Below, in pieces: positions 13,259 through 54,491 of a DNA stretch of 54,491 nucleotides. The notes below the pieces were generated by a model that made no database searches, was not told where the DNA came from, and saw nothing but the letters and a program-made list of their open reading frames with translations. The DNA lies in assembly GCA_001823215.1 (NCBI GenBank), contig MHTV01000042.1, positions 1 to 54,491 of the forward strand, written 5' to 3'. The translations under genes were made by a program, and so were the position numbers. The DNA is from Candidatus Wildermuthbacteria bacterium RIFCSPHIGHO2_02_FULL_45_25. Its GTDB lineage: Bacteria > Patescibacteriota > Minisyncoccia > Minisyncoccales > UBA10102. Numbering within the stretch: position 1 is the stretch's first letter; every line of letters starts with the position of its first letter.

Positions 13259-13480
13259 TTATTTCTCCAGCCATTCTTCTTTCGGAATCCCAGATTGCGC
13301 AATGATTCCCTTTAAAGTCCTTGGTTTTAATGACCTTCCGTGGTGAAGAGGAATTGTTACTTGATGAAACTTTCCCTTATATGCCCCCGCATAATAAAAA
13401 TGGCTCCCGCGCGAGTGCGTGTACTGAAAGCCATATTCTTTGAGAAATCGCATTACATCTTCCGAAGTCCAATTATGCAA
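13259..13480 (-). CDS. hicA: HicA-family toxin (mRNA interferase)
   Basis: 73 aa. The pattern DVMRFLKEYGFQYTHSRGSHFYY...VTIPLHHG is typical of YcfA/HicA. It lies immediately downstream of a HicB-like gene. Confidence 0.85.
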   Translation of the reverse strand: MHNWTSEDVMRFLKEYGFQYTHSRGSHFYYAGAYKGKFHQVTIPLHHGRSLKPRTLKGIIAQSGIPKEEWLEK

Positions 13481-13495
13481 TCCTCTTGGTATACC

Positions 13496-13831
13496 CTACA
13501 CAAAGGCAAAATCCGATGAATTTTTTGATGTATTCAGTTGACCGCTTGTATATACCGGATATTTTGTTCTCTTTTTCTCTTGCGCCGCCCGCCAGATTTT
13601 TTCATATTCTTCGTCAATTTTTTGATTCAAAATTGCAGGTCTTGCTTTCATTTTCCGTGCGGCTTCCACATACCCTTGAATTGCCTCAAAAAGTAGCAAC
13701 AAAGCTTCACGAGGCGTATCTCCTTCTTCCACGATATTAAATTCAAGTCCTACCGCATACCATGTTTCCCTCTCGCGAAACACAATATACCGAACAGCTC
13801 CCTTTTGAAGGGTATTGCTATATTTTACCAT
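13496..13831 (-). CDS. hicB: HicB-like antitoxin
   Basis: 111 aa with an N-terminal HicB-type fold pattern (YIVFRERETWYAVGLEFNIVEEGDTPREAL). It is paired with hicA 15 nt downstream. Confidence 0.7.
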   Translation of the reverse strand: MVKYSNTLQKGAVRYIVFRERETWYAVGLEFNIVEEGDTPREALLLLFEAIQGYVEAARKMKARPAILNQKIDEEYEKIWRAAQEKKRTKYPVYTSGQLNTSKNSSDFAFV

Positions 13832-13938: not shown

Positions 13939-14301
13939 TTACTCCATTGGCGAGCCAAGCTGAAAATAGTTTCCGTCGGGATCCGCGAACGTGGCGAGCG
14001 TCATTTCCTTTGCTTCCTCGGGATGATAGGGTTCGGCAACCACTTGCGCGCCCAATCCTTTGATTCGTTCAAATTCTTTCTCGACATCCTGCGTTTCAAA
14101 GTTGAATATAAGTCGCTCCGGATTTGCATTCTTCCCTTTTACTTTATCATGCGGGCCGATGATCAACATGCCAGACCCCGCTCTAAATCCTACGAAATCT
14201 CCTCCCTCCCATTCTGATTTTACCTCTAAGCATTTTCCATAAAACTCGGCCAATGCTTTTGGATTTTCAGACGAAAGTAACAATGAGTTGAGTTGAAGCA
14301 T
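13939..14301 (-). CDS. VOC (glyoxalase/bleomycin-resistance) family protein
   Basis: 120 aa with a beta-alpha-beta-beta-beta pattern and a C-terminal FADPDGNYFQL motif typical of VOC proteins. Confidence 0.8.
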   Translation of the reverse strand: MLQLNSLLLSSENPKALAEFYGKCLEVKSEWEGGDFVGFRAGSGMLIIGPHDKVKGKNANPERLIFNFETQDVEKEFERIKGLGAQVVAEPYHPEEAKEMTLATFADPDGNYFQLGSPME

Positions 14302-15121: not shown

Positions 15122-17800
15122 CTAATAACTGAACAATCTTACAGCTTCCATAAAGTCCCCTGGCTTATATCTCTCCCACTCCTCTTGTTTAACATACAGA
15201 GCTTTATACGCTATCCTCCTTTGCCTATTGCTTGCATCCGCGCACCATTGTTTTAACCGCTCTATTTTTAAAGGATCGTCTACATCCTCTCGCCCCTTTG
15301 TTTCAATAATAAAGATTGTATTCTCGTCTGCCTTCGCAAAGAAGTCGGGAATATAGCGCGCAATTGCCCCGCTCACATTTTTATAGTCAATCCTGAAATT
15401 TATTTCATTATAATTTTTTGCAAAAGAAATAATATCATTGCAATCCTCCAGAAAATCTGCAAACTCAAGCTCAAAATCGTTATCGCCGACAATCTTGTTG
15501 AACACGCTCTTTTTGGGTAGAAAATACTTTCTGTCGTTCACCACAAACGGCCTGCTGTCGCTCACCTTAATGTAATTCTTTACTTCCGCATCCCCGATAT
15601 CTTTCACCGTTAGATTGTTAATCTCCTTTTTAAATGTCTCGATTATCGTTTTTATAACTTCAGTTTCCGAGAAGTTTTGTAATATATTTCTATCCTCCAG
15701 ATTAACAGGAATTTCAAAAAGATAATCGCGGGCAAATTCTTTCATCTTGCCAAATAAGAGATCATAGCAACCAAATAATCGCAATTCTTTCATTACACGC
15801 TGAACAAACCATCCAAGCGCACTTTGATAATTCGGTTCAATAACTGATTCAAGTATTGTGCGATGATGTTCTTCATCTTCCACTACAGTTCTAAATACAA
15901 TCTCTTTTTTCTCTTCATCGCTAAACTCTTTGATCTTTATCTTTTTATGTCCAAATTTTGATATATCCAATTCGCCAAGATTTTTGTATTCCCTTTGAAT
16001 CCGCGGAGTCAGAATAGGTAGCTCAATATCCAAAGTCGGAATATCTTTCTTCTCATTCTCATTATCAACTTCAATAACTATAGGAGTTATTGGACCTACT
16101 CCAGTACCCATTTTCCGTTTCTCTAATTCAACCCCTTCCGCTTTGATAGATTCCACAAACTCCATAAACGCTGGCGTTCCAATAACGCTTACATATTCTT
16201 CAACATCTTCTCTTCCAAAAAACATCCTCCTTAATCCCCTTCCAAGTGTTTGCTCCGGCAAGATATTTGATTTCGCAGAAAACGCCCGAAGCCCTACAAT
16301 TGTCGTAACATTTTTCACATCCCAACCTTCTTTCAGCATCAAGACTGAAACAATTACCTTAAAAGGGCTTCCCATGCTATCAATTTCGTTCGCTTGCTTT
16401 CGAAGTTTGCGTAGTTCTTCTTCATCTTTCCCCTTTGTTGTTTCTGAAATTTCCCCGCTCTTGTTTGTATGAATAGTCAAAATAGCTCCTTTCAAATCAA
16501 GGTAGGTATTTTCTAAATAGGCGGCCACATCATCACAGTTCACCGTGTCGTCTGTCATAACAAACAAAATTGATTTTTTCCCCGTTGGCTCCAGCTCTTT
16601 ATTCGCCTTTCTCCACTCCTCAACACCAAGCCGAATAAAGTCTTCATACCGCTCTGCGAATAGAGAGCTCTGTTTTTCTACCAACTTTGCTCGGCTTGCC
16701 TGATCGGGAAGCACTGGATTTTTGACAACTCGCTGATGAATTGCTTCCACCAAAGGATAATCAGAAACTGTTTGCACAAAAATAGCTCCTTTCTCATCTT
16801 TTGGAGTTGCGGTTGCATCAATTTGTAACGCAAGCCGCTTCCCTTTCTGCAAAAGCTTGTTATGGATATCTTCAATAGACTTAGACCATGCCAATTTTTC
16901 ATGATGAATATGATGCGCCTCGTCATTTATCACAATCAGCTCATCAATATCCCGAACAATCTCTCCAAGATCAACGCGCGATTGATTTGTTTTTGCTGCT
17001 GGTTTGGCGCCCAGGAAATAATCCGAAGTATCTTCATCTTCAAAACTCGCTTCTTTTACATCACCCTCAAAAACCCGATGGATGTTCGTTAGAAATACAT
17101 TTCCTGTGCTGGATATAGCTCTCACTTCATCCTGTAAATGAAGTGTTATCTGAAAATCATCTTGCCAATTTTGCCCCTCGTATCCATTTTCCGGTAAAAC
17201 AGGATCCTCATAAAATATTTTTAATCCTTCGAAATCAATTTTGATCCGCTCCAAAACAATGATGTTTGGAGTTATTAAGAGAAAATTGCGGGCAAGGCCA
17301 GAATCCTTTTCATACATTTTGTGAAAATATGCCCACGCAAGAAGCAAGCTCATCACCTTTGTCTTCCCGCTTCCCGTTGCCATCTTCACCACAAACCGTA
17401 GCCAATCTTCCCGAAACATATTGGGGCTTACTCGTCCAAGTTTGTCGTATTTGAGCAAATCATATTTGCTCTCAACTTTAGCAACGTCATACAGCCAGAT
17501 GATGGTTTCTACCGCCTCTCTTTGAGCAAAATAATATCGGAACGGTACGGCAATACCTTTGGAATCAAAAGTTGTATGCGCCGTCTTAAACCACCAGTTG
17601 AGCAATGCTTTGCTTGTAGCACTCGCACTCTCATAGTTATTCTCCCTCCACTTCTTCACCTCTTCCCTCAACATTGGCACAAAGGGCGGCAACAGTTTTT
17701 CATACCCTTGCTCCCGCAAATCCTCATCAGCAGGAAACCACCGAATACTCGGGTCTAAGATTTTGTATGGGTCTCTTGGAAAGTTTTTGTGAAGCGCCAT
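15122..17800 (-). CDS. res: type III restriction enzyme, Res subunit (SF2 helicase + PD-(D/E)xK nuclease)
   Basis: Motif I ATGSGKTKVM, motif II DEAHH, helicase C-domain motifs, and a C-terminal nuclease motif (YIPDF...IIETKG). Confidence 0.9.
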   Translation of the reverse strand: MALHKNFPRDPYKILDPSIRWFPADEDLREQGYEKLLPPFVPMLREEVKKWRENNYESASATSKALLNWWFKTAHTTFDSKGIAVPFRYYFAQREAVETIIWLYDVAKVESKYDLLKYDKLGRVSPNMFREDWLRFVVKMATGSGKTKVMSLLLAWAYFHKMYEKDSGLARNFLLITPNIIVLERIKIDFEGLKIFYEDPVLPENGYEGQNWQDDFQITLHLQDEVRAISSTGNVFLTNIHRVFEGDVKEASFEDEDTSDYFLGAKPAAKTNQSRVDLGEIVRDIDELIVINDEAHHIHHEKLAWSKSIEDIHNKLLQKGKRLALQIDATATPKDEKGAIFVQTVSDYPLVEAIHQRVVKNPVLPDQASRAKLVEKQSSLFAERYEDFIRLGVEEWRKANKELEPTGKKSILFVMTDDTVNCDDVAAYLENTYLDLKGAILTIHTNKSGEISETTKGKDEEELRKLRKQANEIDSMGSPFKVIVSVLMLKEGWDVKNVTTIVGLRAFSAKSNILPEQTLGRGLRRMFFGREDVEEYVSVIGTPAFMEFVESIKAEGVELEKRKMGTGVGPITPIVIEVDNENEKKDIPTLDIELPILTPRIQREYKNLGELDISKFGHKKIKIKEFSDEEKKEIVFRTVVEDEEHHRTILESVIEPNYQSALGWFVQRVMKELRLFGCYDLLFGKMKEFARDYLFEIPVNLEDRNILQNFSETEVIKTIIETFKKEINNLTVKDIGDAEVKNYIKVSDSRPFVVNDRKYFLPKKSVFNKIVGDNDFELEFADFLEDCNDIISFAKNYNEINFRIDYKNVSGAIARYIPDFFAKADENTIFIIETKGREDVDDPLKIERLKQWCADASNRQRRIAYKALYVKQEEWERYKPGDFMEAVRLFSY

Positions 17801-17940
17801 ATTGTAATGTGAATAACTAGCTATTGACGGTATCTAACTCAACTGCTACCATACAAATGGAATTGACACCGTCTCGAACTGTCGCAATCCAATGCGGCGT
17901 TCCCGCAAGGGATAGAGCCGGTGTTTTGTTTTTACTCTTC

Positions 17941-18555
17941 TTACGGCCATACCTGCACTTTAAATTCATGCGGCTTAATAATCCTTCGGTATATATCTTT
18001 ATCTCCTTTTCCCGTAAAACTGCGATGCACAGATCCTGCGATCATATCTACAAGCTGGATAAGATTGTTTGAATGCGAGGATTGTATCTTAACTTTTTTA
18101 ATTAACCCATCTGTTTTCTTGCGCAGATATACTTGCAACTCGTGCTTAAACTCGCGCGATCCGCTACCATCAATAACAACCGTAGCATTGCGTAAATGCG
18201 GTTTTGCATTTTCAAACACAAGAAAACAAGCATACTTATAAAAAGATTCCTTGACAATAAATCCGTCTCCATAAAGTTTCTTGGGATCTTTATTGATGAC
18301 TACGCTAAAATATCCAAAAGAATATGGCAACACGGCCTTCAGAAATGCTTCTCGTTGTTCCCTCCGCATCTTGCGAAATTTAAACTCGTACCCATCTGGC
18401 ATACGCAGTTCTTTTTTCAACAACGAGATTCTTTGATCACAGGCAATCGCTTCGTCATTTTCTTCAAAAAATACCATAGAAACAACAAAATATCTGCTTG
18501 ACCCGCAATCAAGTTTTCTTCCGGTATCCCCTGATTCATCAATGAATACAAGCAT
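17941..18555 (-). CDS. DUF3800-family protein
   Basis: The N-terminal MLVFIDESGDTG signature and a length of about 200 aa are typical of DUF3800. There is a 4-nt gap from the upstream gene. Confidence 0.75.
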   Translation of the reverse strand: MLVFIDESGDTGRKLDCGSSRYFVVSMVFFEENDEAIACDQRISLLKKELRMPDGYEFKFRKMRREQREAFLKAVLPYSFGYFSVVINKDPKKLYGDGFIVKESFYKYACFLVFENAKPHLRNATVVIDGSGSREFKHELQVYLRKKTDGLIKKVKIQSSHSNNLIQLVDMIAGSVHRSFTGKGDKDIYRRIIKPHEFKVQVWP

Positions 18556-18559
18556 ACAA

Positions 18560-19750
18560 TTAAACCTTTCCCCTTTTTAAATATTCTTTGACGTTCTCCG
18601 TCCTCGTTACCTTTCCATGCATTCTTATATCACTAATTCCAGATGGCGAATCACCGTAGGATAATGCATGATAGATGATCCCATCGTTTGATTTTACTCT
18701 TTTATCATTAAAATAGGTGTACAGATTCGCCCGTGAGATTTGGTCATCAAGCATAGAGAACATGGCCATCTCACATAGCCCGAATTCAAATAATTGCTCT
18801 TCCCCATTCGCAGCACGATTATAAAAAACATTATAATCTCTTATAGCGGAAGAAACAAAAAATGGTTTTTGCACAACCTCTGCTGCCACAATTGCTCCAT
18901 TAAACAAAATCTTTACCTCTGTTACTAAATCTTTGTTTACTTGCGATGAAATAACAACGTAGCACACTTCGATCCAATCAAGCATTTCACTGGTCTTCAA
19001 AACAATGGAAACTCCTTCAATATCCTTCATAGATAACTCTAGTTTTCCTAACTTATCTAGCAACAAAGAAATACGCATTCCATCGCGTGAATAGATCGCG
19101 TCAAATAAATATACTCTTTCATTTGGCAATTTCGGGATGGCCAGTAAAAAATGAATCTCAAAATTCGCGAGTGAGCTTAGAAATCCTTGCCCCAATTGCA
19201 AAGCTATCTCGCCAATCTGCAACAAAGGATTCCTTAGAAATGTAATCCACTCATTAAAATCCGAAGGCCTATCTGGAGAAAAGTGCGAGCCACCGTCCTT
19301 GTTCGCAAACCATCCAATAACTTCGCGAACGCTATAATAATGACCCCTGATGCACACAATCTTTTTATCAGGAAACTCCTTAAAATTTATCTGCTGTTGC
19401 GACGGCAATTCTCTAGTAGCACTGACAGGAAAACCACTAATATGCATAGTAACTTCTCCAACTGGCAAGCTAGATTTACTTGTATCCGGCATCATGTATA
19501 ATTTCAATTCTTTATCAAATTTCTCTGCCAATTTTAGCAAAAGTGGATGCGCATCTTTACCTTTCGACTTATCAGTCAGAAGAGCTCTTAACTGACCCGA
19601 CAAGGGAAGGAAATAGTAAATACGATTGTTTCTTAACATATTGCATGAGTCTCGTAGTATCTGAAGAGACCACGACAATTCTATTATTTGCCGGCCTAAC
19701 GATTTTCCGATCTCGCCATATGTCCACTTTTTGTCTGCCTCTCCTCCCAT
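18560..19750 (-). CDS. hypothetical protein (helical N-terminal half, LamG/ConA-like beta-rich C-terminal half)
   Basis: 396-aa ORF tightly coupled to its neighbours (10 nt after the mod stop, 4 nt before the DUF3800 start). No family recognised. The C-terminal half follows a LamG-like pattern (inference). Confidence 0.7.
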   Translation of the reverse strand: MGGEADKKWTYGEIGKSLGRQIIELSWSLQILRDSCNMLRNNRIYYFLPLSGQLRALLTDKSKGKDAHPLLLKLAEKFDKELKLYMMPDTSKSSLPVGEVTMHISGFPVSATRELPSQQQINFKEFPDKKIVCIRGHYYSVREVIGWFANKDGGSHFSPDRPSDFNEWITFLRNPLLQIGEIALQLGQGFLSSLANFEIHFLLAIPKLPNERVYLFDAIYSRDGMRISLLLDKLGKLELSMKDIEGVSIVLKTSEMLDWIEVCYVVISSQVNKDLVTEVKILFNGAIVAAEVVQKPFFVSSAIRDYNVFYNRAANGEEQLFEFGLCEMAMFSMLDDQISRANLYTYFNDKRVKSNDGIIYHALSYGDSPSGISDIRMHGKVTRTENVKEYLKRGKV

Positions 19751-19760
19751 GACTTTAAGA

Positions 19761-21893
19761 TTATATTTTCACTTCAATTACCTTCGTCGTGTCATTCCCG
19801 AAAATATCAACAACCTTTACTGCAAGCTTATACTTGCCCGGAGAAACTTCCTTTTCAGAAGAAGTAAGCTCCAGTTTCTTATCTTTTTTCGTTCTGAAAG
19901 ATTGCCATTCGTTCTCAAAGATATATCCGCCAGTCCATTCCTCTTTTTCTTCTTTCGTTTCTGGATTGATAACTTTTACTATTTCTTTTCTATTCTCAAA
20001 ATCAAAATCCACCGACCAGTAGTCCACCCAGTCAGTCCAGTTTTTAGTCAAAACTTCACGCTCAACAATCTCCGTTTTCTTATCCTTTGAAAGTTTAATA
20101 ACTTGTCCGTTTTCAATCACTACCTTGCTTCCGCCTGGGCGCAGTTTTTCTTCGGTTTCACCGATGTCTTCCTGATTATAGAAAACGCTAAAATCAACAA
20201 GCTCAACCGATACAGTTTTCTTATTTCCTCTGCCTTTTACGATTGGTTTTGCTTCAAGATATGCGACATCATAAAACCGCACTTGTCCTTTCTCCACCGC
20301 CTTTTTATCAAACACTTCCCGTGGGATTTTCTTGAATTGGATGTCCAACCCCTGCTTCTTTGTATCCTCAAAATCCAGCCCCATTTCATAATCAAATCCC
20401 AAGACATCCGCCTTAGTGATTTTCTTTTCCTTACACTCTTTCACGATGTCTTGAATGAGCCCCGAAGTTATAGGTAAATCAATCGAACCGATAGCAACCA
20501 ATCTATCCCTTTTCTTCCCGACAAAAGTATTGAATGACTCCACTGGTTCTGCTTTGTAAGCAGAAAGAATGAGAGCGATGTATTCCTTTTCCTTTTTTGC
20601 CCGAACCTTTCTCTTTTCCTCCTCCCGCAAATCTTTGCTTACATGATTAACATAGTATTCCCGTTCATATTTACCAACATTCAATATCTCAAATGCCCGA
20701 TAGTGTTTACTATCTTTTTTGAGTTGTCTCTGCACCCCAATCATTCGCTTTCTCGTTGTATGAATTCCGAAGCGCCCTAAATCAGACCCAATCCATTTCC
20801 GTCCAAGTTTCTCTGCAACTGCTAGGGTTGTCCCTGAACCACAAAAGAAATCGGCTACGATATCACCTTCGTTTGAAGACGCTTTAATAATTCTTTCCAA
20901 TAAAGATTCGGGTTTTTGCGTGGGGTAACCAACTCTTTGATTATGATCTTGAATAACATAAATATCACTCCACCAATCATTTACAGCTAAATAATCATCT
21001 TCTTCAAGATATTTTCTATATTTTTTACCATCAGAGTGTTTATATTCTTTGTAGAATCCTTTTTCATCTTTTCCAGAAAATTTACTAATTTGCTTTTCGC
21101 CAAAAGGAACGCCTATGTCTTTCGCATTGAAAATAGCTCTGTCTGATTTTGCATAGAACCAAATTGTGTCGTGTTTTCTCTTGTACTGCTTTGGAGATTT
21201 TCCTGTACCTTGGTAACACCAGACTATTTCATTTCTAAGATTATCTGCGCCAAATATTTCATCTAAAACTAATCTCATAAACGCAGTAACTCTATAATCA
21301 CAATGCACATAAATACTCCCCTCATCAGAAAGTAAGTCGTACATAATCTTCAATCTTTCATAAATCATCGCGATAAAACTATCCGCGCCCTTGCCCCATG
21401 TATCTCTATAAGCAACTTCTTCAATCACCGATGGTTGCTTGGTAAAAGATTCATCTCCAATCTCGATATTCATTGAAAAATCCGCACCGACATCAAAAGG
21501 TGGGTCAATGTAGATAAGTTTCAGCCCTCCTTGCGCTTCAATCTCTTTCCTCATGGGACCATTCTTGAGAGAAGAAAGGATGAGTTTGTTGTCTCCCCAA
21601 ATGAGTTTATTCGTCCAATCTTTTATTTGCCTGCCAGAGGAGTCAAAAAGCTCCATTTGTGCCTTTCTTACTTGCTCGCTTCTTGGCTCGTCAATATGTT
21701 CAATTGTTTGGAATGGCAAAACAGTGTTTGCTACTTCATTGGTCTTTCCATTCCACACAAGTTCAACTTCCCGATCATCATCAAAAAGCAAAAATCGGTA
21801 TTTCTCCGGCAATGGTTTGCCAGATTCCAAATACTTCAATATATCCCGCTTTTCGCTGTCTGAAAGATTCATAAAACTGCCCATTTGTTTCAT
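19761..21893 (-). CDS. mod: type III R-M DNA methyltransferase, Mod subunit (beta-class N6A/N4C)
   Basis: Motif IV IYIDPPFDVGADF precedes motif I FFCGSGTTLAVAEKLGRKWIGSD. I place the start at 21893 (or 21884 or 21872) because a minus-strand terminator at 21951-21987 lies inside the longer track ORF. Confidence 0.9.
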   Translation of the reverse strand: MKQMGSFMNLSDSEKRDILKYLESGKPLPEKYRFLLFDDDREVELVWNGKTNEVANTVLPFQTIEHIDEPRSEQVRKAQMELFDSSGRQIKDWTNKLIWGDNKLILSSLKNGPMRKEIEAQGGLKLIYIDPPFDVGADFSMNIEIGDESFTKQPSVIEEVAYRDTWGKGADSFIAMIYERLKIMYDLLSDEGSIYVHCDYRVTAFMRLVLDEIFGADNLRNEIVWCYQGTGKSPKQYKRKHDTIWFYAKSDRAIFNAKDIGVPFGEKQISKFSGKDEKGFYKEYKHSDGKKYRKYLEEDDYLAVNDWWSDIYVIQDHNQRVGYPTQKPESLLERIIKASSNEGDIVADFFCGSGTTLAVAEKLGRKWIGSDLGRFGIHTTRKRMIGVQRQLKKDSKHYRAFEILNVGKYEREYYVNHVSKDLREEEKRKVRAKKEKEYIALILSAYKAEPVESFNTFVGKKRDRLVAIGSIDLPITSGLIQDIVKECKEKKITKADVLGFDYEMGLDFEDTKKQGLDIQFKKIPREVFDKKAVEKGQVRFYDVAYLEAKPIVKGRGNKKTVSVELVDFSVFYNQEDIGETEEKLRPGGSKVVIENGQVIKLSKDKKTEIVEREVLTKNWTDWVDYWSVDFDFENRKEIVKVINPETKEEKEEWTGGYIFENEWQSFRTKKDKKLELTSSEKEVSPGKYKLAVKVVDIFGNDTTKVIEVKI

Positions 21894-21950
21894 TATCCCC
21901 GAAAATCGCTCAAAAATCAACAAACATTTACTCGAAAAAAGAAAAATGAG

Positions 21951-21987
21951 AAAAACAAAACATCTGGTTAGCAAAGCCAACCAGATG
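21951..21987 (-). terminator. rho-independent terminator upstream of mod
   Basis: Minus strand catctggtt-N9-aaccagatg followed by ttttgttttt. Confidence 0.65.
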
Positions 21988-22369: not shown

Positions 22370-22397
22370 TTGACAAACGCGCTCACGCGCATATAAT
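22370..22397 (+). promoter_or_regulatory. consensus sigma70-type promoter
   Basis: TTGACA (22370-22375), 16-nt spacer, TATAAT (22392-22397). GGGAGG lies 6 nt before the ATG at 22430. Confidence 0.7.
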
Positions 22398-22787: not shown

Positions 22788-22816
22788 AAAAAAGCCGCCG
22801 CGGCGCGGCGGCTTTT
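22788..22816. terminator. bidirectional GC-rich hairpin terminator
   Basis: aaaaaa-agccgccg-cggcg-cggcggct-tttt lies between convergent genes. Confidence 0.65.
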
Positions 22817-46903: not shown

Positions 46904-47788
46904 ATGCATAGAACACAAATCGGTTTGGCACTAGGCGGCGGAGGCGCAAGAGGATTTGCTCATATTGGTGTACTGCAAGCGCTCGAGCAAGCAGATATAG
47001 AAATTCGCTGTCTATCTGGCACTTCCATGGGAGCTGTGATCGCCGCTGGATATGCTCATAAAAAAGATCTTAAGCGTCTAGAAAAGCATGTTTTAGATTT
47101 TGCATACTTGGATTTCATCAAATATCATAATCGAAACATCTCTATAGACATACATAAACTCATCGCGTACTTTGACGATTATCTCGAAAATTCAGATTTC
47201 AGCGAATTGCAAATTCCCTTACAGATATTAACCGCAGACTTAAAAGAAATGCGGGGGTTTGTAATCAATCAGGGTAAAGTGTCCAGAGCAATTGCCGCGG
47301 CCTGCACAGCGCCTTATATCCAGAAACCGATTCAATATGGAAACCGCTTATTAGTTGACGGCGGAGTGCTTTCAGATGTTCCAATTGAATTAGTTGATAA
47401 TCCTATTATTGATATGATTATCGGAGTAAAAGTGGCCTCAAAGCATCCGCGCGATGAGAGAGATGATTTTTCCATGAATAAACTTCAAAAACTAATGATT
47501 TCAAAATTTCCTCTCTTGTCATTTCTTTGGCATAAGCAAATAAGCGCATATATGAGGCATTCCAAAAGAATTGTTCATAACGAACTCGCGCAATTAAGAA
47601 TTGCTATGGTCAAAAAACCACTTGTCTTGATTGAACCGGAGCTTGGAGATATGAGTACCTTCTCATTCGACCAAGCCGATAAAGCCATAGAAGCCGGATA
47701 TATTGCTACTATCAAAGCGTTACCAACTTTGCGAAGCGCAGATTATTCGAATAGAGCGAATCAGGAAGTTTTACGTTCTAGTTTTTAG
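46904..47788 (+). CDS. patatin-like phospholipase
   Basis: Oxyanion GGGGARG, nucleophile GTSMG, and catalytic DGG motifs at canonical spacing. Confidence 0.9.
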   Translation: MHRTQIGLALGGGGARGFAHIGVLQALEQADIEIRCLSGTSMGAVIAAGYAHKKDLKRLEKHVLDFAYLDFIKYHNRNISIDIHKLIAYFDDYLENSDFSELQIPLQILTADLKEMRGFVINQGKVSRAIAAACTAPYIQKPIQYGNRLLVDGGVLSDVPIELVDNPIIDMIIGVKVASKHPRDERDDFSMNKLQKLMISKFPLLSFLWHKQISAYMRHSKRIVHNELAQLRIAMVKKPLVLIEPELGDMSTFSFDQADKAIEAGYIATIKALPTLRSADYSNRANQEVLRSSF

Positions 47789-48023
47789 AAATATCCTGAT
47801 GACTTAACACGTAATCCGCCACTTCTTTCACCGTTGTTACCTTTATGATTTCCGCGGGATTGATAACGATATTATGCTTATTTTTCAGAATAGAGATAAA
47901 TTCAATAATATCCATGGAATCTTTTGCCACATCTTCGAGAGGCGTTGCACTATTAATTGAACCTCTTTTCTGCTCAAAAACAGCTTCGATTATTTCAATA
48001 ATTTTTTGTTCAGTTAGTTTCAT
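47778..48023 (-). CDS. acyl carrier protein
   Basis: 81 aa with DSMDIIEF (DSx attachment site) at the canonical position. There is a 4-nt overlap with the upstream PPTase gene. Confidence 0.8.
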   Translation of the reverse strand: MKLTEQKIIEIIEAVFEQKRGSINSATPLEDVAKDSMDIIEFISILKNKHNIVINPAEIIKVTTVKEVADYVLSHQDISKN

Positions 48024-48667
48024 TGTAAATAGGTTATCTTCACTATACGTTTTTGAATCTCCTCATAGGGATAACAATAACCAATAACATATCCTTCACG
48101 CAAAAATACTTTTGCAAACCACTTTGAGCATTCAACGATTACAGAATAATCTTTTTTATCTTTCTCTATTTTCATATCCGTAAATGGATAAGCGATGCCT
48201 ACTCCCAACGCCTTGGATACTGCTTCTTTCATAACCCATATCTTTGTTACTATTGTATCTGGATTTTCTTCATCAAACAAACTTATTTCCTCTTCTGATG
48301 CGATGCTTCGCAATAGACTCTCCTCATGGTTTCGGATCAACTCTACATCTACGCCTATCTTAAAAAAAGCTGCGCCAGCTATACCTAATCCATAAGAATG
48401 CGCGATAGAGCAAAACATACTGGATATATCTAAAACTGGCTTACCAAAATTGTTATACTGAATTATAACCTTTTTAAAATCATTTTCTGAAACTGAATGC
48501 TTTACCGCAATCCTTCCTAAAAGTTTATCGCGGAGCTTGTTACCTTGGAAATTTCCAGAAAGATACGTTAATTCATCAGAAGAGAAATATTCCTCTTCTA
48601 CAACTTTATCTGACAAGTATGAGCTACTTACTACGACAAGTTGCATATGCATAAACTCTTGAAACAT
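48020..48667 (-). CDS. Sfp-type 4'-phosphopantetheinyl transferase
   Basis: GVDVE metal-binding motif and WVMKEAVSKALG motif. About 215 aa, which is Sfp size. The exact start is uncertain (48667, 48652 or 48646). Confidence 0.8.
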   Translation of the reverse strand: MFQEFMHMQLVVVSSSYLSDKVVEEEYFSSDELTYLSGNFQGNKLRDKLLGRIAVKHSVSENDFKKVIIQYNNFGKPVLDISSMFCSIAHSYGLGIAGAAFFKIGVDVELIRNHEESLLRSIASEEEISLFDEENPDTIVTKIWVMKEAVSKALGVGIAYPFTDMKIEKDKKDYSVIVECSKWFAKVFLREGYVIGYCYPYEEIQKRIVKITYLQ

Positions 48668-50161
48668 AAAAATATGGAGTCATTCTACCAATTCCTTTCT
48701 CTTTTTGAAAATTATGGCGATAACGAATCTTTATGCACATCCGATGAAAGTATTAAATTTACTTATAGGAACCTTGCGAAAGAAATAAAAAACTTTAGCC
48801 ATTTCGTATCAACCAGAATAAAACCCGGACAAAGAGTTGTTTTATTAGATCTGCATGGACCGCATTGGGTTATAGCATTCTTTTCAATTGTTCTTAATAA
48901 AGCGATCGCTGTGCCGATAGACAAAAGAATGAATCAAGCATTACAAGAAGAGATATTCAAAATGGTGGACGCGGAACTCTTAATCACCTGCAATCCATAT
49001 ATAAAATTTCCAAAAAGAATAATCGTCTATGAAGAAGAAAAACTGCCAAGTTCAGAATGGAAACCAGAAAAAGTAGCATTAGATACCCTCTGCGAGATCA
49101 TCTTCACATCCGGAACTTGGGGAAAACCAAAGGGAGTAGCACTAACTCACAGAAACATCCTCTCTAACTTACATTCCGTTCTTCAGGTATACAAACCAAA
49201 ACAAGGAGAGAAGGTTTTATCGGTTCTGCCGCTTTCCCATGCATATGAACAAATGTGCGGCCTTTTACTCCCTATCGCGTCAGGTTGCCATATTATTTAC
49301 CAGAGCTCACTGGATAGCTTTTCATTATTACAATCCCTCCAGAAATTTAAAGTGCACTATATGGTTGTGGTGCCTCGCTTCCTCGAACTTTTTCAATCCA
49401 GTATTACCAGCAATCTCGGAAAATCAAAGCCGATTTTCTCTTTCCTGCTAAAAATCTCAAAGTATTTACCGAAATTCCTCAAGCAACTTATTTTTACTTC
49501 ATTACACAAAAAGTTTGGCGGCAACCTCAAAACCTTTATCGTGGGAGGAGCTCCTTTTTCAAATAATTTAGAGGATTTTTTCAAGACATTGGGATTTACC
49601 TGTATTATTGGATATGGTTTATCGGAATCTTCTCCTGTGCTGACAGTATCTCAAGAAAAGAAACGCCCCAAAGATTCAGTTGGGTACCCTATTCCCCAAG
49701 TTACAATAGCAATTGCAGACGATGGGGAAATCATCGCCTCTGGTCCAAATATCTCGCCAGGATACTGGCCATTAGAGCAATTTCATACCGGAGTATTACA
49801 TACAGGAGATATTGGCGCCTTAGACGAGAAAGGCAGACTCTATGTGATGGGAAGGAAGAAAAATATGGTCGTATTTTCCACTGGTGATAAAATTCAGCTT
49901 GAGGATATCGAGGATTCCGCAACCAAATTAGACGGGATATCAGAAGTATGCGTGATCGCAGTTGGCAAAAACAATTCCGAACTGATCCTTTTCTATACAG
50001 GAACCGCGAAAGAAGAAACAATAATCGAATATCTCAATCAAAAACTTCCGCTCTATGCAAGAATACACAAAGTTATAAAATGGCACGAGGAGAAACTCCC
50101 TTCCTCCCATACCATGAAAATCCAGCGAAATATTATTCGCAATACCTATGCAACAGACTAA
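48641..50161 (+). CDS. AMP-dependent synthetase/ligase (fatty-acyl-AMP/CoA/ACP ligase family)
   Basis: Adenylation cores TSGTWGKPKGV, GYGLSES, HTGDIG, GRKKNMVV and a C-terminal K (MKIQRN). The start may be at 48674 (MESFYQF). Confidence 0.88.
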   Translation: MHMHKLLKHKNMESFYQFLSLFENYGDNESLCTSDESIKFTYRNLAKEIKNFSHFVSTRIKPGQRVVLLDLHGPHWVIAFFSIVLNKAIAVPIDKRMNQALQEEIFKMVDAELLITCNPYIKFPKRIIVYEEEKLPSSEWKPEKVALDTLCEIIFTSGTWGKPKGVALTHRNILSNLHSVLQVYKPKQGEKVLSVLPLSHAYEQMCGLLLPIASGCHIIYQSSLDSFSLLQSLQKFKVHYMVVVPRFLELFQSSITSNLGKSKPIFSFLLKISKYLPKFLKQLIFTSLHKKFGGNLKTFIVGGAPFSNNLEDFFKTLGFTCIIGYGLSESSPVLTVSQEKKRPKDSVGYPIPQVTIAIADDGEIIASGPNISPGYWPLEQFHTGVLHTGDIGALDEKGRLYVMGRKKNMVVFSTGDKIQLEDIEDSATKLDGISEVCVIAVGKNNSELILFYTGTAKEETIIEYLNQKLPLYARIHKVIKWHEEKLPSSHTMKIQRNIIRNTYATD

Positions 50162-51299
50162 AACACTCCCCCTTATCCTCTTTATTCAATTTATTGAAAT
50201 TACTGCGTATGCAATGCTTCTTCCCTTAATTCCATTTTATGCCCAAACTCTTGGAGCGCATCCCCTTACGATTGGTTGGATATTTGCCTCCTATTCAATT
50301 TTACAACTGTTTACTTCGCCATTCCTAGGAAAACTTAGCGACTTACATGGAAGAAAAAGGATATTCCTTCTGGGTCAATTCGGCACATTCTTGGGATTTA
50401 TCATCCTTGGATTTTCAAAGACAATACCCCTCGTCTTTATTTCTCGCATTACAGATGGATTGACTGGAGGGAACCAAACTGTTTCTTATGCGGCAATCAG
50501 CGATATAACTTCTGAAAGAGATCGAGCAAAAGCTTTTGGTTATATGGGGTCAATTCTCGCGATTGGATTGCTTACCGGGCTTCCGCTTGGAATTTTTTTG
50601 TATAAATTTGGCTTTTCATTCGTCTCGTTTTTTGCAGCTGCCATTTTTCTCGGGAGTACCGTTTTGACAATATTCTTCCTTCCAGAAACAAGAACATCCA
50701 CAACACTTACTCATACCACAAAAAGCTCTTTCACGCATTACCTAAAAGACAAAGCTATTCGTTTAATCCTTCTAAGGATTTTATTTTTTACTCTTCCCCT
50801 GAATATTTTTATATTTGGGTTTTCTCTCTTTGTTCAAAAGCAACTGGATTTTAATGCGCAATACGCAGGATATTCACTTGCGTTTATGGGTATTATAGGT
50901 ATTCTCTTTCAAGTACTATTTTTCGGATCGATTGTTTCAAAACTAGGAGATACGAAAGCATCTTATTTGGGTTTTCTCTTATTAATAACAGGATTTTTTG
51001 TACTTTCGGCGGTAGTGTCGATTCCAATTCTCTTCCTATCACTTACTCTTATCATTTCAGGCACCGTACTCGCCACAAATACATTAAGCAGTTTACTTAC
51101 AAAATCAGTAAGCATTCATGAGTACGGTCATATTATTGGACTCAATCAATCAATAAACAGCATCTGCCAGATACTGGGTCCCTTGATAGCTGGTCTCCTC
51201 ATCGCGAGATTTGAGAACTGGATTTTTGGTTTCACTGCTGCTCTCATCGCATTATTTGGAATTTTGTTTAGCACCAAATTAAATAAACTCTATGACTGA
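50148..51299 (+). CDS. MFS transporter
   Basis: 383 aa with about 12 TM helices and an MFS loop 2-3 motif (GKLSDLHGRKR). It overlaps the ligase stop by 14 nt. Confidence 0.85.
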   Translation: MQQTKTLPLILFIQFIEITAYAMLLPLIPFYAQTLGAHPLTIGWIFASYSILQLFTSPFLGKLSDLHGRKRIFLLGQFGTFLGFIILGFSKTIPLVFISRITDGLTGGNQTVSYAAISDITSERDRAKAFGYMGSILAIGLLTGLPLGIFLYKFGFSFVSFFAAAIFLGSTVLTIFFLPETRTSTTLTHTTKSSFTHYLKDKAIRLILLRILFFTLPLNIFIFGFSLFVQKQLDFNAQYAGYSLAFMGIIGILFQVLFFGSIVSKLGDTKASYLGFLLLITGFFVLSAVVSIPILFLSLTLIISGTVLATNTLSSLLTKSVSIHEYGHIIGLNQSINSICQILGPLIAGLLIARFENWIFGFTAALIALFGILFSTKLNKLYD

Positions 51300-51313
51300 C
51301 CAATTATTCATCC

Positions 51314-52060
51314 TCATACCTCATCTGAATAATGACCATAAGGATATTTGAATTTCTCTTCGCTGTAAATCGGTCCGTGCTTTTTTATGTGCAAATAGCA
51401 CCGTCCCCATAGTAATAATAATTTCATTCTTCCCTCTTTTCGCAGTCTTCGGGGCGAAGCAAATACATAAGGGTGATAATATAAATGAAATGCCGCGCCA
51501 TTTTTTCGAGACCGTCTAAGATAATCAATATCCTCTCCAATGATAACGCCCTCCTTAAAACCGTTTATACTTTCATGATTCCTCTTTGTCGTAAAGATAA
51601 ATGATCCACCATTCAAGGGATCTCCAAATAATCGCGCGAGAGATATAAACGTAAACGCAATAACAATAAATAAGTAATCGAGGAGATTAAATTTGAGAGG
51701 GAGGTGAAATACAAACCCAACAAATTTTTCGCTGCGCGGTGTTTTTTGCGATAATGTATTCAGGAAATTATGAGGGAGCACAATATCAGCATCGAGGAAT
51801 AAAAGATATGTATATATTGCCTTTTCCGCGCCCCTATTCCTTTGATACGGAAGACCCCTGTGTACCTGTAGTATTTGTAAATCCTGAAGCTGTGTATGAA
51901 ATTTTCGAGCTTCGCTGACCGTATGATCTTGAGAATGTCCATCCACAACGATTACCTGAAGCTTTCCTTGAAAATTTTGCGACGCGATTGAATTGAGAAG
52001 TTTTGGTAGATATTTTTCTTCGTTGAGCGCAGGAATGACTATGGAAAGTTCTTTTATCAT
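51314..52060 (-). CDS. family 2 glycosyltransferase
   Basis: SIVIPALNEEKYL N-terminus and LDAD (DxD) motif. The start is set at MIKELSIV (52060). Confidence 0.8.
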   Translation of the reverse strand: MIKELSIVIPALNEEKYLPKLLNSIASQNFQGKLQVIVVDGHSQDHTVSEARKFHTQLQDLQILQVHRGLPYQRNRGAEKAIYTYLLFLDADIVLPHNFLNTLSQKTPRSEKFVGFVFHLPLKFNLLDYLFIVIAFTFISLARLFGDPLNGGSFIFTTKRNHESINGFKEGVIIGEDIDYLRRSRKNGAAFHLYYHPYVFASPRRLRKEGRMKLLLLWGRCYLHIKKHGPIYSEEKFKYPYGHYSDEV

Positions 52061-52124
52061 ACTATAGTATAAGATAAGTTTACTGTTATTTATAGAAAAA
52101 CAATTAATCTCGCACAACTTCACC

Positions 52125-53081
52125 ATGACTGTATTAGAAAAAATTGCCGCCCTGTATGACTCTGCTTCAGATATGCAGATCATATCTAATTATTCTCATA
52201 ACGGATGGGGAATATTTCTATTTGCGGTAGCTTGTCTCATGCTTCTTGCTGGCTTTGGCTATAAAAAGAAAATTCTATCTCATGCCGTGCCAATTATCTT
52301 GCTCTTCATGGAAGGAATTTTCCTTATCTATTTTTTCTTCAATCGAGGTATTGAAAAATCTCTGCTCGTAGGACAACTTATATTCACCTTTCCTGAGATT
52401 TATGTTCACATAGCTATGGCTACTTTCACCATTCTCGGAAATACTATTGAATTGCTCTATGTTGCAGGCAAAATCAAGAATCCGCTTGCGGCCTTCGCAT
52501 TTCCTTCATGGTTTATTGGTGTTGGATATCTGAACATCTTGCATCCCCATGCAGGACTTCATGACCCCGCAAATATGTTCTTTCATTCCGTGCTTGGATC
52601 ATTGTTTATTCTCACTGGAATCATGATTTTAATATATCGACTTATCAAAAATCCCGCATGCGAACTTGCGGCCATCATAACTGCTTCAGCCACTCTTATG
52701 GCTCTTTCAGCAATGCTTGTGCAATATAAAGAACCTATTCTCGCCTATCAAGTATATTTTCCAATAAGAGAAAGCGGCATACCTGCGCTTGATATGAAAG
52801 ATAAAGGGGCAATTTATATTTCAAAAGATGGAATGATCCCGCAAAACATTAAAATCAAAGCGGGAGGGCAAGTCGCATTTATTCAAATTGACTCTAGTTG
52901 GCATGACATTTCTTCAGGTCTCCATCCCATACATACTGAATACCCGCCGCTCAACATCGGCTTCTTGAAAGAAGGAGAAACTCATCTGGTCGTATTTCCG
53001 ACATCGGGAATTTTTGGCTTCCATGACCATATCAATGAAACCGATACAAGATTTCAAGGGAACATTGAGGTATATGACTAA
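52125..53081 (+). CDS. polytopic membrane protein with C-terminal cupredoxin-like domain
   Basis: About six TM helices, then a beta-rich roughly 100 aa (IKIKAGGQVAFIQIDSSWHDISSG...GFHDHINE...GNIEVYD) resembling plastocyanin/EfeO-type cupredoxins (inference). Confidence 0.6.
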   Translation: MTVLEKIAALYDSASDMQIISNYSHNGWGIFLFAVACLMLLAGFGYKKKILSHAVPIILLFMEGIFLIYFFFNRGIEKSLLVGQLIFTFPEIYVHIAMATFTILGNTIELLYVAGKIKNPLAAFAFPSWFIGVGYLNILHPHAGLHDPANMFFHSVLGSLFILTGIMILIYRLIKNPACELAAIITASATLMALSAMLVQYKEPILAYQVYFPIRESGIPALDMKDKGAIYISKDGMIPQNIKIKAGGQVAFIQIDSSWHDISSGLHPIHTEYPPLNIGFLKEGETHLVVFPTSGIFGFHDHINETDTRFQGNIEVYD

Positions 53082-54106
53082 TAGGTGAACAATTTCCCTT
53101 GCCATACTTTTTCGTTTGGATTACTTATGTATTCTTTTCTGCCGCCAATGGAATCCACCCATAGTTTTATATCTTGTATCCCATTGTTAAAATCATAAGG
53201 TGGATCATAATGCAAATCCCGCTTAATTTTTTCAATCGAAAGTGTTGATTCTTGAGAGAACTGTCTTACTATATCTCTTGTGAAAAGAGGTGTTTTTTTA
53301 TGAGAAAAGATTCGATTTTGCGTTTCAAACAAAACAGCGATTCCATACGCAGCAAGATAAGGTACGTTGTACACTCTCGGATGAAGATCAAAAGCAAGGC
53401 ATAATCTTTTCAAAAGCTCGTTTACGGTGAGTGTTTTATCATCTGTAACGTTGAAGATACGAAACATCTCCAATTTTGCCGCAAGAAGAAGTGAAACTGC
53501 ATAACAGATATTCCCCACATGCGTGATTGAAAATTCATTTGTTCCATCTCCAATCACAAACTCCTTGCCTCTTTCTGCAAATTTAAGGATACGAGGCACA
53601 ATATGCCGATCGCCTGGTCCATAAATTACATGGGGTCTTAAAATCGTAACTTTTCTATATTTATTTGAAAAATCTTTAACCATTCTTTCCGCTTGAGCTT
53701 TTGTAGCTCCATAGTTATTTGCGTATTTTTCTGGATATAGAGAATCCTCGGTCGCTAAATGCTTTCCATACCAAGGATTATACACACTTGCGGTACTCAT
53801 ATATATAAAGTGTTCCGCTCCTTCCGCAAATTCCAAAGCGCGTTTTGTGCCCATTACATTAAGGTCATACATATCTCTATAGCGTCCCCACGTGTCTACA
53901 AATCCTGCGCAATGAATAAAGATATCAGCTTCACACCTCTCCAAAATCGGGCGCGTTATATCCCACAGACGAAAATCAGCAAATTTGAGAAGGTTTTCTG
54001 CGGGTTTTGAACGTCCATACGCCACTATGTTATGTCCTTGAGATGAAAGATGTCTCACCAAATGAGATCCCACAAATCCCGTCGCGCCAGTTATTCCTAT
54101 TTTCAT
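53078..54106 (-). CDS. NAD-dependent epimerase/dehydratase (3-beta-HSD-like extended SDR)
   Basis: GATGFVGSHL Rossmann motif and catalytic YGATKAQAE (YxxxK). Confidence 0.88.
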   Translation of the reverse strand: MKIGITGATGFVGSHLVRHLSSQGHNIVAYGRSKPAENLLKFADFRLWDITRPILERCEADIFIHCAGFVDTWGRYRDMYDLNVMGTKRALEFAEGAEHFIYMSTASVYNPWYGKHLATEDSLYPEKYANNYGATKAQAERMVKDFSNKYRKVTILRPHVIYGPGDRHIVPRILKFAERGKEFVIGDGTNEFSITHVGNICYAVSLLLAAKLEMFRIFNVTDDKTLTVNELLKRLCLAFDLHPRVYNVPYLAAYGIAVLFETQNRIFSHKKTPLFTRDIVRQFSQESTLSIEKIKRDLHYDPPYDFNNGIQDIKLWVDSIGGRKEYISNPNEKVWQGKLFTY

Positions 54107-54111
54107 ACAAA

Positions 54112-54453
54112 TTATTTCTTAAAAAGCTCTTGCAGTTTTTTCTTATCAATCTTTGATTGACGGCCAAACCGAGGTAATTTCATGATACTAATTTCATCAG
54201 GAAGCGCATGTATATCTATAGAATATGTTCCACTCCGAATACTTCGTTCAACAACTTCTGCAACATTCTTATCTTCAAGATTATATGGCTCAACTACTAA
54301 AATAATCGCTTCATCTTCTGCTTGCTCATCTCGGATACCAATAAGAGCACACGCGGCGACACCTGGTATTTGTTGTATGATTGGTTCATAAAGTCCGGGA
54401 TATATATTAGACCCACTGCACAATAGCATTCGTGTGCAGCCGCAGGAAAACAC
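54112..54453 (-). pseudogene. C-terminal subdomain of an adenylate-forming enzyme (PaaK/F390-synthetase-like); N-terminal domain absent
   Basis: SGSNIYPGLYE (like GxNVYP), VVEP..., and KLPRFGRQSKIDKKKL (A10-type lysine). An in-frame TGA lies at 54478-54480 just upstream and the window ends at 54491, so this may be a truncation or an assembly edge. Confidence 0.5.
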
Positions 54454-54491
54454 CGGCGGCTTTTTGTTATGCTCGTTTCAGATTGTAGAGT

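Follow-up and report, generated by a model that had tools for sequence, protein, structure and literature searches.

The locus described here raises the question of whether the genes lying between the two subunit genes of a type III restriction-modification (R-M) system, mod and res, are parts of that system or guests of it. The locus is located in a contig from a genome bin of Candidatus Wildermuthbacteria, a tiny bacterium of groundwater (candidate phyla radiation, CPR; Parcubacteria), and the whole stretch of 54,491 nt that was analysed is referred to below as the window. Here mod and res are separated by 1960 nt of cargo, made up of two protein genes, one encoding a 396-aa protein of an unnamed family and the other a DUF3800 protein, together with one convergent small RNA (sRNA) gene. 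The reading that we favour, and to which we would assign a probability of about two in three, is that this is an intact type III system from a lineage widespread in CPR, in which the junction between mod and res repeatedly serves as a slot for cargo and, in the window, holds two independent cassettes, the 396-aa gene being one and the DUF3800 gene with its sRNA the other.

The restriction system itself looks intact, judging from its full-length reading frames and the presence of all catalytic motifs. Mod matches PF01555 at 1.3e-45 and the PADLOC model MTase_III at 1.4e-117, and its translation carries 'IDPPFD' (motif IV) ahead of 'FFCGSGTT' (motif I), which is the beta-class order. The Mod proteins of six related loci, 64-89% identical to that of the window, each align from residue 8 of the 710-aa reading, and the start codon is therefore probably the ATG at 21872 and not the one at 21893. 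Res matches PF04851 at 1.5e-16 and PF19778 at 2.9e-5 (24.3 bits vs a cut-off of 23.4), and its translation shows GSGKT, DEAHH and a C-terminal IPDF..IIETKG, the signature of a PD-(D/E)xK nuclease. The best 120 Res homologues listed are 74-84% identical to it, homologues in this identity range all begin with MALH, and the mean column identity is 85% in an alignment of 14 sequences drawn from several classes of CPR and from other phyla. Like EcoP15I and EcoP1I, the locus therefore encodes a beta-class Mod followed on the same strand by a Res with an SF2 helicase and a PD-(D/E)xK nuclease, with the order and strand of a type III system retained; unlike them, it lacks the immediate adjacency of the two genes, which lie 1.96 kb apart.

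According to the ORF table and the translations, mod, the 396-aa ORF, the DUF3800 ORF, res and a DUF2268 ORF all lie on the minus strand. A first-pass annotation, made by a model from the letters of the DNA, had already described a beta-class Mod (DPPF before FxGSGTT) and a Res with helicase and nuclease motifs, split on one strand by these two ORFs, and both the motifs and the coordinates agree with our results. The spacing it gave is exact (10 nt from the mod stop to the ATG of the 396-aa gene, 4 nt from there to the DUF3800 ATG, 140 nt from the DUF3800 stop to the res ATG and 21 nt from the res stop to the DUF2268 ATG), and the profile match bears out the DUF2268-like protease that it placed after res. 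The upstream terminator it proposed was found as a 12-bp stem (21987-21961) followed by a T-run, belongs to an upstream gene of 73 aa and shields the block from upstream transcription; the block is also, as claimed, AT-richer than its surroundings (GC 0.37-0.42 vs 0.44-0.49 in the flanks). The statement that no hairpin terminator lies inside the block holds for the coding strand, on which no convincing one was found, but not for the plus strand, which carries the hairpin and U-run of the sRNA gene, and the annotation missed the gene in the 140-nt gap, this being where the DUF3800-IX RNA gene is located. The candidate promoter just upstream of the mod start is a weak match, assigned by comparison with the consensus.

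Evidence for a recurrent slot comes from the same junction in related systems. All six independent loci with a Res at least 76% identical to that of the window hold cargo between mod and res (Table 1), and this cargo is mosaic, with the 177/180-aa, NYN and Schlafen cassettes each occurring in two or three combinations beside Mod proteins of 64-89% identity. Scanning IMG/VR with the single Res protein gave no match; an alignment-based Res scan of that collection gave 15 further loci (Res 57-75% identical), 13 of which have the mod-to-res order. Eight of these 13 have a canonical junction of 4-16 nt (two of them possibly being duplicates) and five hold cargo, consisting of KilA-N, of DUF488 with a 276-aa gene, and of single genes of 170, 206 and 222 aa. 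For the lineage in total, cargo is present in 12 of 20 loci and comprises at least 15 gene families, most of them without annotation, the remaining eight having the canonical junction. Similarity between loci ends at the mod stop codon, which is often overlapped by the next ATG, and resumes at the res ATG; the cargo begins at or overlaps the former and ends before the latter, truncating neither gene. Terminal repeats flanking the cargo of the window were looked for and none was found.

Some further observations were made on this R-M lineage. Compared with the Mod of one relative (L107), that of the window is 79.5% identical over residues 8-256 and 89% over residues 293-710, with a middle part (residues ~257-292; window 20790-21130) that cannot be aligned and that looks like a swapped target-recognition domain, which would give the two enzymes different recognition sequences. 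Directly upstream of mod, two relatives encode an SMC_N/AAA_21-type ATPase of 872-874 aa (L107 1943-4567 and L110 467-3085; 81% identical) which is absent from the window and may be a further optional component of the lineage. The genomic setting also varies: in the Parcubacteria genome GW2011_GWA2_49_9 (L111 1800-11026, also L112) the R-M island is flanked by rplB and rpsS, within the S10 operon of ribosomal-protein genes, and has the order SEC-C protein, 264-aa gene, mod, 196-aa gene, NYN, res and 110-aa gene, and in another lineage (L116-L118) the same R-M clade is found between dnaB and rpoB.

The better defined of the two cassettes in the window is that of DUF3800. When the whole window was scanned with Rfam, the sole match above the gathering score was RF02968 (DUF3800-IX) at 17865-17929 on the plus strand, with 52.5 bits (gathering score 36.8) and an E-value of 1.5e-8, covering the full length of the model (positions 1-67). 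The RNA is antisense to DUF3800 and res, and its gene converges with DUF3800. The predicted RNA, ~75 nt long, begins with a 5' GGAAUUG box (GGAATTG at 17859-17865), continues into a three-way junction (P1 of 11 bp, P2 and P3) and closes with a U-run, the outer stem being followed by UUUUGUUUUU, whose end is 7 nt away from the stop codon of DUF3800, read in complement; the predicted minimum free energy is -27.6 kcal/mol (z -2.6).

This anatomy is retained elsewhere. We collected 80 metagenomic loci encoding close DUF3800 relatives (53-79% identity); the module recurs at 75 distinct loci, none of which has the 396-aa gene. Of the 20 loci scanned with Rfam, 19 contain RF02968, in each case on the opposite strand and 4-28 nt past the DUF3800 stop. 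When sigma-70-type promoters with at least 9/12 consensus matches were sought, 52 of 61 distinct loci had one whose -10 box ends 6-7 nt ahead of GGAAUUG, as against 0.3% of random positions, and the U-run typically continues into the complement of the stop codon. Among 60 distinct copies, 15 of the 16 predicted pairs show compensatory double changes and the unpaired nucleotides of the three-way junction are conserved. Cells with G-U are many (e.g., 38 and 17 at two P1 positions) vs a single C-A cell, and this asymmetry, together with the promoter and the U-run, identifies the strand opposite DUF3800 as the functional one. DUF3800 and DUF3800-IX therefore constitute a compact, self-contained, convergent protein-RNA module of ~750 bp. 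Eleven unrelated RNA structures associated with DUF3800 genes have been described previously, with no functional hypothesis offered (Weinberg et al. 2017, PMC5737381), and the RNA of the window agrees with that description in scoring above the Rfam gathering score and adjoining a DUF3800 gene; what is added here is the fixed convergent geometry, the sigma-70 promoter, the GGAAUUG box, the terminator abutting the stop codon and the frequent residence in R-M operons. Our literature search for functional work published since then on DUF3800, on the drum or skipping-rope RNAs, and on PDC-M04 found none.

RNAs beside other cargo were also sought, and the Rfam scan of the six related R-M loci gave no match. 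The NYN cargo gene (L116 6885-6976, minus strand; L114 6853-6880) is followed by a strong convergent promoter, TTGACT-16-TATAAT with TG (11/12), and a terminator-like hairpin on the strand of that promoter lies inside the 3' end of NYN, again with no Rfam match. This element may represent another type of antisense sRNA, one that accompanies a nuclease gene of the cargo.

The protein partner matches PF12686 at 8e-15 (56.2 bits vs a cut-off of 21) and, over residues 3-193, the PADLOC model PDC-M04A at 1.6e-11; no other PDC-M04 model matched any of the five block proteins. Homologues number 1597, and in 22 of them that were aligned D6, E7, D129, Q167 and D170 are invariant, the DE...D...QxxD motif thus being intact. 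Proteins of the DUF3800 family have been reported to be RNase H-like and linked to non-coding RNAs, and to retrons of type VII and Cas12a2/a3, beside which they are effector-like partners.

The habitat of the module is also distinctive. Among the 122 immediate neighbours of the 75 distinct modules, the commonest are N6_Mtase (8), Eco57I (5), N6_N4_Mtase (4), ResIII (4) and the type I specificity subunit HsdS, and a restriction-type neighbour occurs within 4.5 kb in at least 14 of the 50 loci with at least 1.5 kb of flank. The module is thus strongly associated with R-M loci, its hosts including type I, IIG and III systems and pairs of a methyltransferase (MTase) with a PLD-SNF2 helicase, in addition to non-restriction contexts. 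It lies between a methylase and a helicase-nuclease gene in at least four loci besides the window. Two of the loci examined (L094 and L100) share the order Mod-DUF3800-sRNA-Res, with Mod and Res ~30% identical to those of the window and without the 396-aa gene; in two others (L043 and L081) the module lies between an Eco57I-like methylase and a PLD-SNF2 helicase, and elsewhere it follows hsdM (L061), a type IIG enzyme (L030) or hsdS (L027). The upstream junction of DUF3800 is typically 0-15 nt, on the same strand. At several loci (L039/L041, L050, L094, L100) tRNA genes lie within 1-3 kb of the module or of its host R-M locus, and these may be island integration sites. In another locus the first DUF3800-sRNA module is followed by the start of a further DUF3800 gene, incomplete and 58% identical over 36 aa (L086 1237-1344), which suggests tandem modules or a remnant.

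A different reading of the slot is that its guests are selfish addiction cassettes without any antiviral function, DUF3800 and its sRNA being a toxin and its RNA antitoxin, the NYN and PIN cargo being toxins too, and all of them lodging in the mod-res junction since expression and retention are guaranteed there. We consider this unlikely, although it is the strongest of the alternatives. A convergent sRNA abutting a stop codon is the geometry of type I toxin-antitoxin pairs such as txpA/RatA, and here a predicted nuclease has such an sRNA gene, with a promoter of its own, directly at its stop codon. RNase or nuclease functions (NYN, PIN and Schlafen-like) are also predicted for much of the slot cargo that could be identified, the NYN gene too has its convergent promoter and hairpin, and HicAB is located nearby. 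Against this, a three-way-junction RNA with conserved unpaired nucleotides, in a family of proteins associated with eleven RNA classes, argues for a specific RNA-protein partnership and not for simple antisense control, and restriction-linked embedding has earlier predicted real defences; moreover, toxin-antitoxin and abortive-defence roles are compatible with each other.

The other cassette, the 396-aa gene, was not matched by any model of Pfam, NCBIfam or PADLOC, and in PHROGs the solitary match was a weak one, phrog_7805 (E 0.0034). Scanning 91 members of the family against Pfam was unproductive, two members weakly matching Laminin_G_3, and a profile search of the PDB with the family gave no match. 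A word-indexed search returned 9 relatives, and a profile search over 1.84 billion representatives reached much deeper, delimiting a family of 714 clusters (50% identity) at E<=1e-3, 168 of them at E<=1e-30, almost all 380-415 aa long. The only residues invariant across the 91 members are R55, G154 and H156, the last two in a GGxH156 loop. In the AlphaFold2 (AF2) model (pLDDT 84.6) the protein has two domains. The C-terminal one (residues 197-396) is a concanavalin/LamG-like jelly roll, with Foldseek matches (probability 1.00, E 3e-6 to 1e-4) to the receptor-binding (Hc) region of BoNT/TeNT, to pentraxin and to the TSP-1 N-domain. For the N-terminal one (residues 1-195; pLDDT 81.6 when modelled alone) Foldseek found no match in the PDB, the best E-value being 0.83, and what it returned from BFVD were uncharacterised proteins of phages at borderline E-values (1e-3 and 0.09). 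The NKxGGxH loop raised the idea of a HEPN RNase, which was rejected, as the residue six before H156 is Asn or Asp in the 9-sequence alignment and not the Arg of an Rx4-6H motif, R55 lies 101 residues from H156, and neither the 91-member Pfam scan nor Foldseek gave a HEPN match.

Searches that included a scan of the genome collection with the 9-sequence alignment located 396-aa homologues in 25 other loci, or 20 distinct places after near-identical contigs had been merged, in hosts that include Bacteroidota, Cyanobacteria, Desulfobacterota, Gammaproteobacteria, Gemmatimonadota, Bdellovibrionota and Verrucomicrobiota. DUF3800 or Res was found near the homologue in none of these 20 places (0/25 loci), and a Mod-like methyltransferase in a single one (L025), ~6 kb off; in the other direction, a 396-aa homologue is missing from all 80 DUF3800 loci. 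Behind the closest full-length homologue (L008, 52% identity) there is no DUF3800 gene. The 112 neighbouring proteins taken from 19 places include no recurrent family, only isolated defence matches (Drt2, PDC-S19, PDC-S13 and mad3). The family could not be linked by hhalign to the cargo found in the equivalent position (194 aa and 196 aa) or to a 394-aa gene after res in L114, all probabilities being <1%. The 396-aa gene is therefore solitary, patchily distributed and independent of DUF3800. Directly before the closest homologue lies a 55-aa fragment of the BsuBI/PstI restriction endonuclease family (L008 603-770); one other homologue adjoins DUF4760 and another IS21/rve transposases.

These neighbourhoods bear on the proposal of the first-pass annotation that the two inserts are co-expressed accessory components of a composite defence system, i.e., that the four or five genes form a fixed unit in which the 396-aa and DUF3800 proteins serve Mod and Res as dedicated sensor/effector or anti-anti-restriction subunits. 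The common strand, the gaps of 4-10 nt and the lack of a coding-strand terminator are compatible with co-expression, and DUF3800 does occur between Mod and Res in two further loci, but the composite itself is already largely refuted by the neighbourhood data and we regard it as very improbable. The pair, whose recurrence that annotation had proposed to check, never recurs (0/25 loci, or 20 distinct places, and 0/80 loci), the closest 396-aa homologue stands without DUF3800, the closest Mod and Res relatives hold unrelated cargo or none, and the DUF3800-sRNA module is also found in type I, IIG, MTase with PLD-SNF2 and non-restriction loci. A role as accessory to defence is thus supported for DUF3800, which is R-M-linked and matches PDC-M04A, and not for the 396-aa family, which is found mostly outside defence and R-M contexts and for which the recommended profile, Foldseek and PADLOC searches yielded the LamG-like C-domain only. 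That a simple insertion broke the operon and left a decaying restriction system is scarcely credible: canonical type III systems do have adjacent mod and res, and 8 of the 20 relatives have a 4-16 nt junction, but the two ORFs are complete and retain every catalytic motif, the cargo truncates neither, relatives with cargo keep full-length Mod and Res (64-89% identity), and the mobile-element ends or target duplications that would mark such an event were absent around the inserts, where only short chance repeats were seen.

The following mechanism may be proposed for the window. The cassettes would ride on the mod promoter, because no coding-strand terminator intervenes and the gaps are 4-10 nt. 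Transcription probably reaches res by read-through over the antisense sRNA gene, because there are just 23 nt between the -35 box of the sRNA and the start codon of res, an interval in which no promoter on the coding strand was found; a similarly tight sRNA-res geometry is seen in L094. As this read-through crosses the sRNA gene, complementarity between the sRNA and the operon transcript would be perfect where DUF3800 meets res, and convergent transcription or pairing could modulate the levels of DUF3800 and Res. On the most economical model, the DUF3800 protein would be a nuclease held inactive or directed by its cognate RNA, in the manner of an RNA-antitoxin or retron-type tripwire, and the module may act as an embedded second-line or abortive defence. 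In the 396-aa protein, the LamG-like domain might, on the simplest view, serve as sensor and the N-domain with its conserved R and H as effector, all within a single gene, this being a weak step of the proposal. The mod and res flanks are highly conserved, and recombination between them could be the way in which cassettes are swapped.

Several points weigh against this interpretation. The sample of 20 loci is modest, 13 of these having been taken from a 'viral contig' dataset with a possible bias. We infer co-transcription, read-through into res, the sRNA as a transcript and recombination as the route of cargo exchange from sequence data, and the roles given to DUF3800, to its RNA and to the 396-aa family are proposals. 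The DUF3800 protein is a predicted RNase H-like nuclease whose fold is taken from the literature, a sequence search of the PDB with its profile having given no match. The 396-aa family is only weakly associated with defence and its presence in the slot may be incidental.

A more ambitious version, which we consider distinctly improbable, would make the junction a dedicated exchange site for RNA-controlled nuclease cassettes wired to restriction. The sRNA would both neutralise or guide DUF3800 and gate Res by pairing across the DUF3800-res junction; should a phage block restriction or shut off transcription in the host, the level of the labile sRNA would drop and the nuclease would be unleashed, as a backup comparable to PrrC but assembled from a new pair of protein and RNA, with the 396-aa LamG protein as an independent single-gene sensor-effector. 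If true, this would be the first function for the DUF3800 RNAs.

The slot reading has precedents. In EcoprrI (hsdM-hsdS-prrC-hsdR), PrrC is the classical second-line abortive defence coupled to restriction. The window resembles it in having a putative latent RNase-type effector inside an R-M operon, and differs in that its host is type III and that any coupling at this locus is conjectural. PrrC-type identity was considered for both inserts and rejected, as neither shows an ABC ATPase or PrrC nuclease match in Pfam, NCBIfam or PADLOC. PrrC has been described as 'almost exclusively embedded in type I RM', and embedded defence genes are documented more widely by a guilt-by-embedding survey whose hosts were Hma, BREX, DISARM and type I R-M, the PADLOC PDC models being candidates predicted from such embedding (Payne et al. 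2024, bioRxiv 10.1101/2024.01.29.577857). The cargo of the window agrees with that survey in that extra genes are nested between core restriction genes without disruption and that DUF3800 matches PDC-M04A, and departs from it in the type III host, in a 396-aa family that PADLOC does not contain and in an sRNA partner that is not part of the survey's description. With RNA-controlled toxins (txpA/RatA, ToxIN, retron type VII, of which DUF3800 is an associated or fused protein) the module shares a predicted nuclease and a dedicated structured small RNA gene; at the level of genes, it also has the neighbouring sRNA gene with its own promoter and terminator that characterises toxin-antitoxin pairs with an RNA antitoxin. 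It differs from them in having no reverse transcriptase and no ToxI-like repeats, and in that the RNA does not overlap the ORF. The phenomenon is therefore the same as that of PrrC in EcoprrI and of the embedded defences of Payne et al., and no categorically new system is present; new here are the type III host, the single precise junction with very diverse cargo, the defined anatomy of DUF3800 and its RNA, and the unnamed 396-aa family.

Embedding in defence operons is among the most productive current routes to new prokaryotic immune genes, and it is seen here at one precise site in a type III lineage of very high abundance among CPR/Patescibacteria. Because relatives hold different guests, or none, in the same gap, the mod-res slot is a promising place to find new antiviral genes. 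DUF3800 and its eleven RNA classes, functional orphans since 2017, now have a concrete gene anatomy and a preferred habitat in R-M operons, and the hypothesis of a toxin/antitoxin or an RNA-guided nuclease is therefore directly testable. A sizeable unnamed family has also been defined, with ~714 clusters at 50% identity, an unrecognised N-terminal fold and a LamG-like C-domain.

Table 1. Features of the type III block and its neighbours in the window, and cargo between mod and res in six related loci.
Feature	Position	Strand	Basis or content
Intrinsic terminator of upstream 73-aa gene	21951..21987	-	12-bp stem CATCTGGTTGGC/GCTAACCAGATG, then TTTTGTTTTT
Candidate block promoter TTGATT-17-GATAAT	21892..21920	-	9/12 consensus, just upstream of mod start
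mod, type III beta-class N6/N4 DNA methyltransferase	19761..21872 (ORF readable from 21893)	-	PF01555, PADLOC MTase_III
Cargo 1, 396-aa protein, unnamed family	18560..19750	-	AF2 model, profile search
Cargo 2a, DUF3800 protein, 204 aa	17941..18555	-	PF12686, PADLOC PDC-M04A
Cargo 2b, DUF3800-IX small RNA gene	17859..17934	+	RF02968, covariation
Small-RNA promoter TTGACG-17-TACCAT, upstream TG	17824..17852	+	Consensus match, conserved offset
res, type III restriction subunit	15122..17800	-	PF04851, PF19778
DUF2268 HExxH putative metallopeptidase, 240 aa	14378..15100	-	PF10026 at 1.7e-26
Probable HicB, 111-aa ORF	13496-13831	-	Adjoins HicA; no Pfam match
HicA toxin	13259-13480	-	PF07927 at 1.8e-12
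L107, cargo between mod and res			194 aa + 177 aa
L110, cargo between mod and res			Schlafen/AlbA_2-HATPase_c_4
L111, cargo between mod and res			196 aa + NYN
L113, cargo between mod and res			PIN_12 + 91 aa + Schlafen/AlbA_2
L114, cargo between mod and res			180 aa + NYN
L116, cargo between mod and res			133 aa + KTSC + NYN

As regards the neighbouring genes, the DUF2268 gene that follows res is missing in all related loci compared and is a neighbour, not a conserved part of the system. The HicAB pair reported next to the block was recovered in its toxin, and its second member is a probable HicB, which together make a probable neighbouring toxin-antitoxin pair. The window (13939-14301) and one relative (L113 10714-11112) each have a glyoxalase-family gene a few genes beyond res, which may reflect conserved synteny or coincidence. 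The DNA immediately upstream of the block contains a perfect match to a TTGACA-16-TATAAT promoter on the plus strand (22370-22397) and, at 22794-22812, a GC-rich palindrome that reads as a bidirectional terminator. Further AT-rich stretches are located at 1-1000 and 47000-54491 of the window (GC 0.34-0.40 vs ~0.46) and may be other acquired regions.

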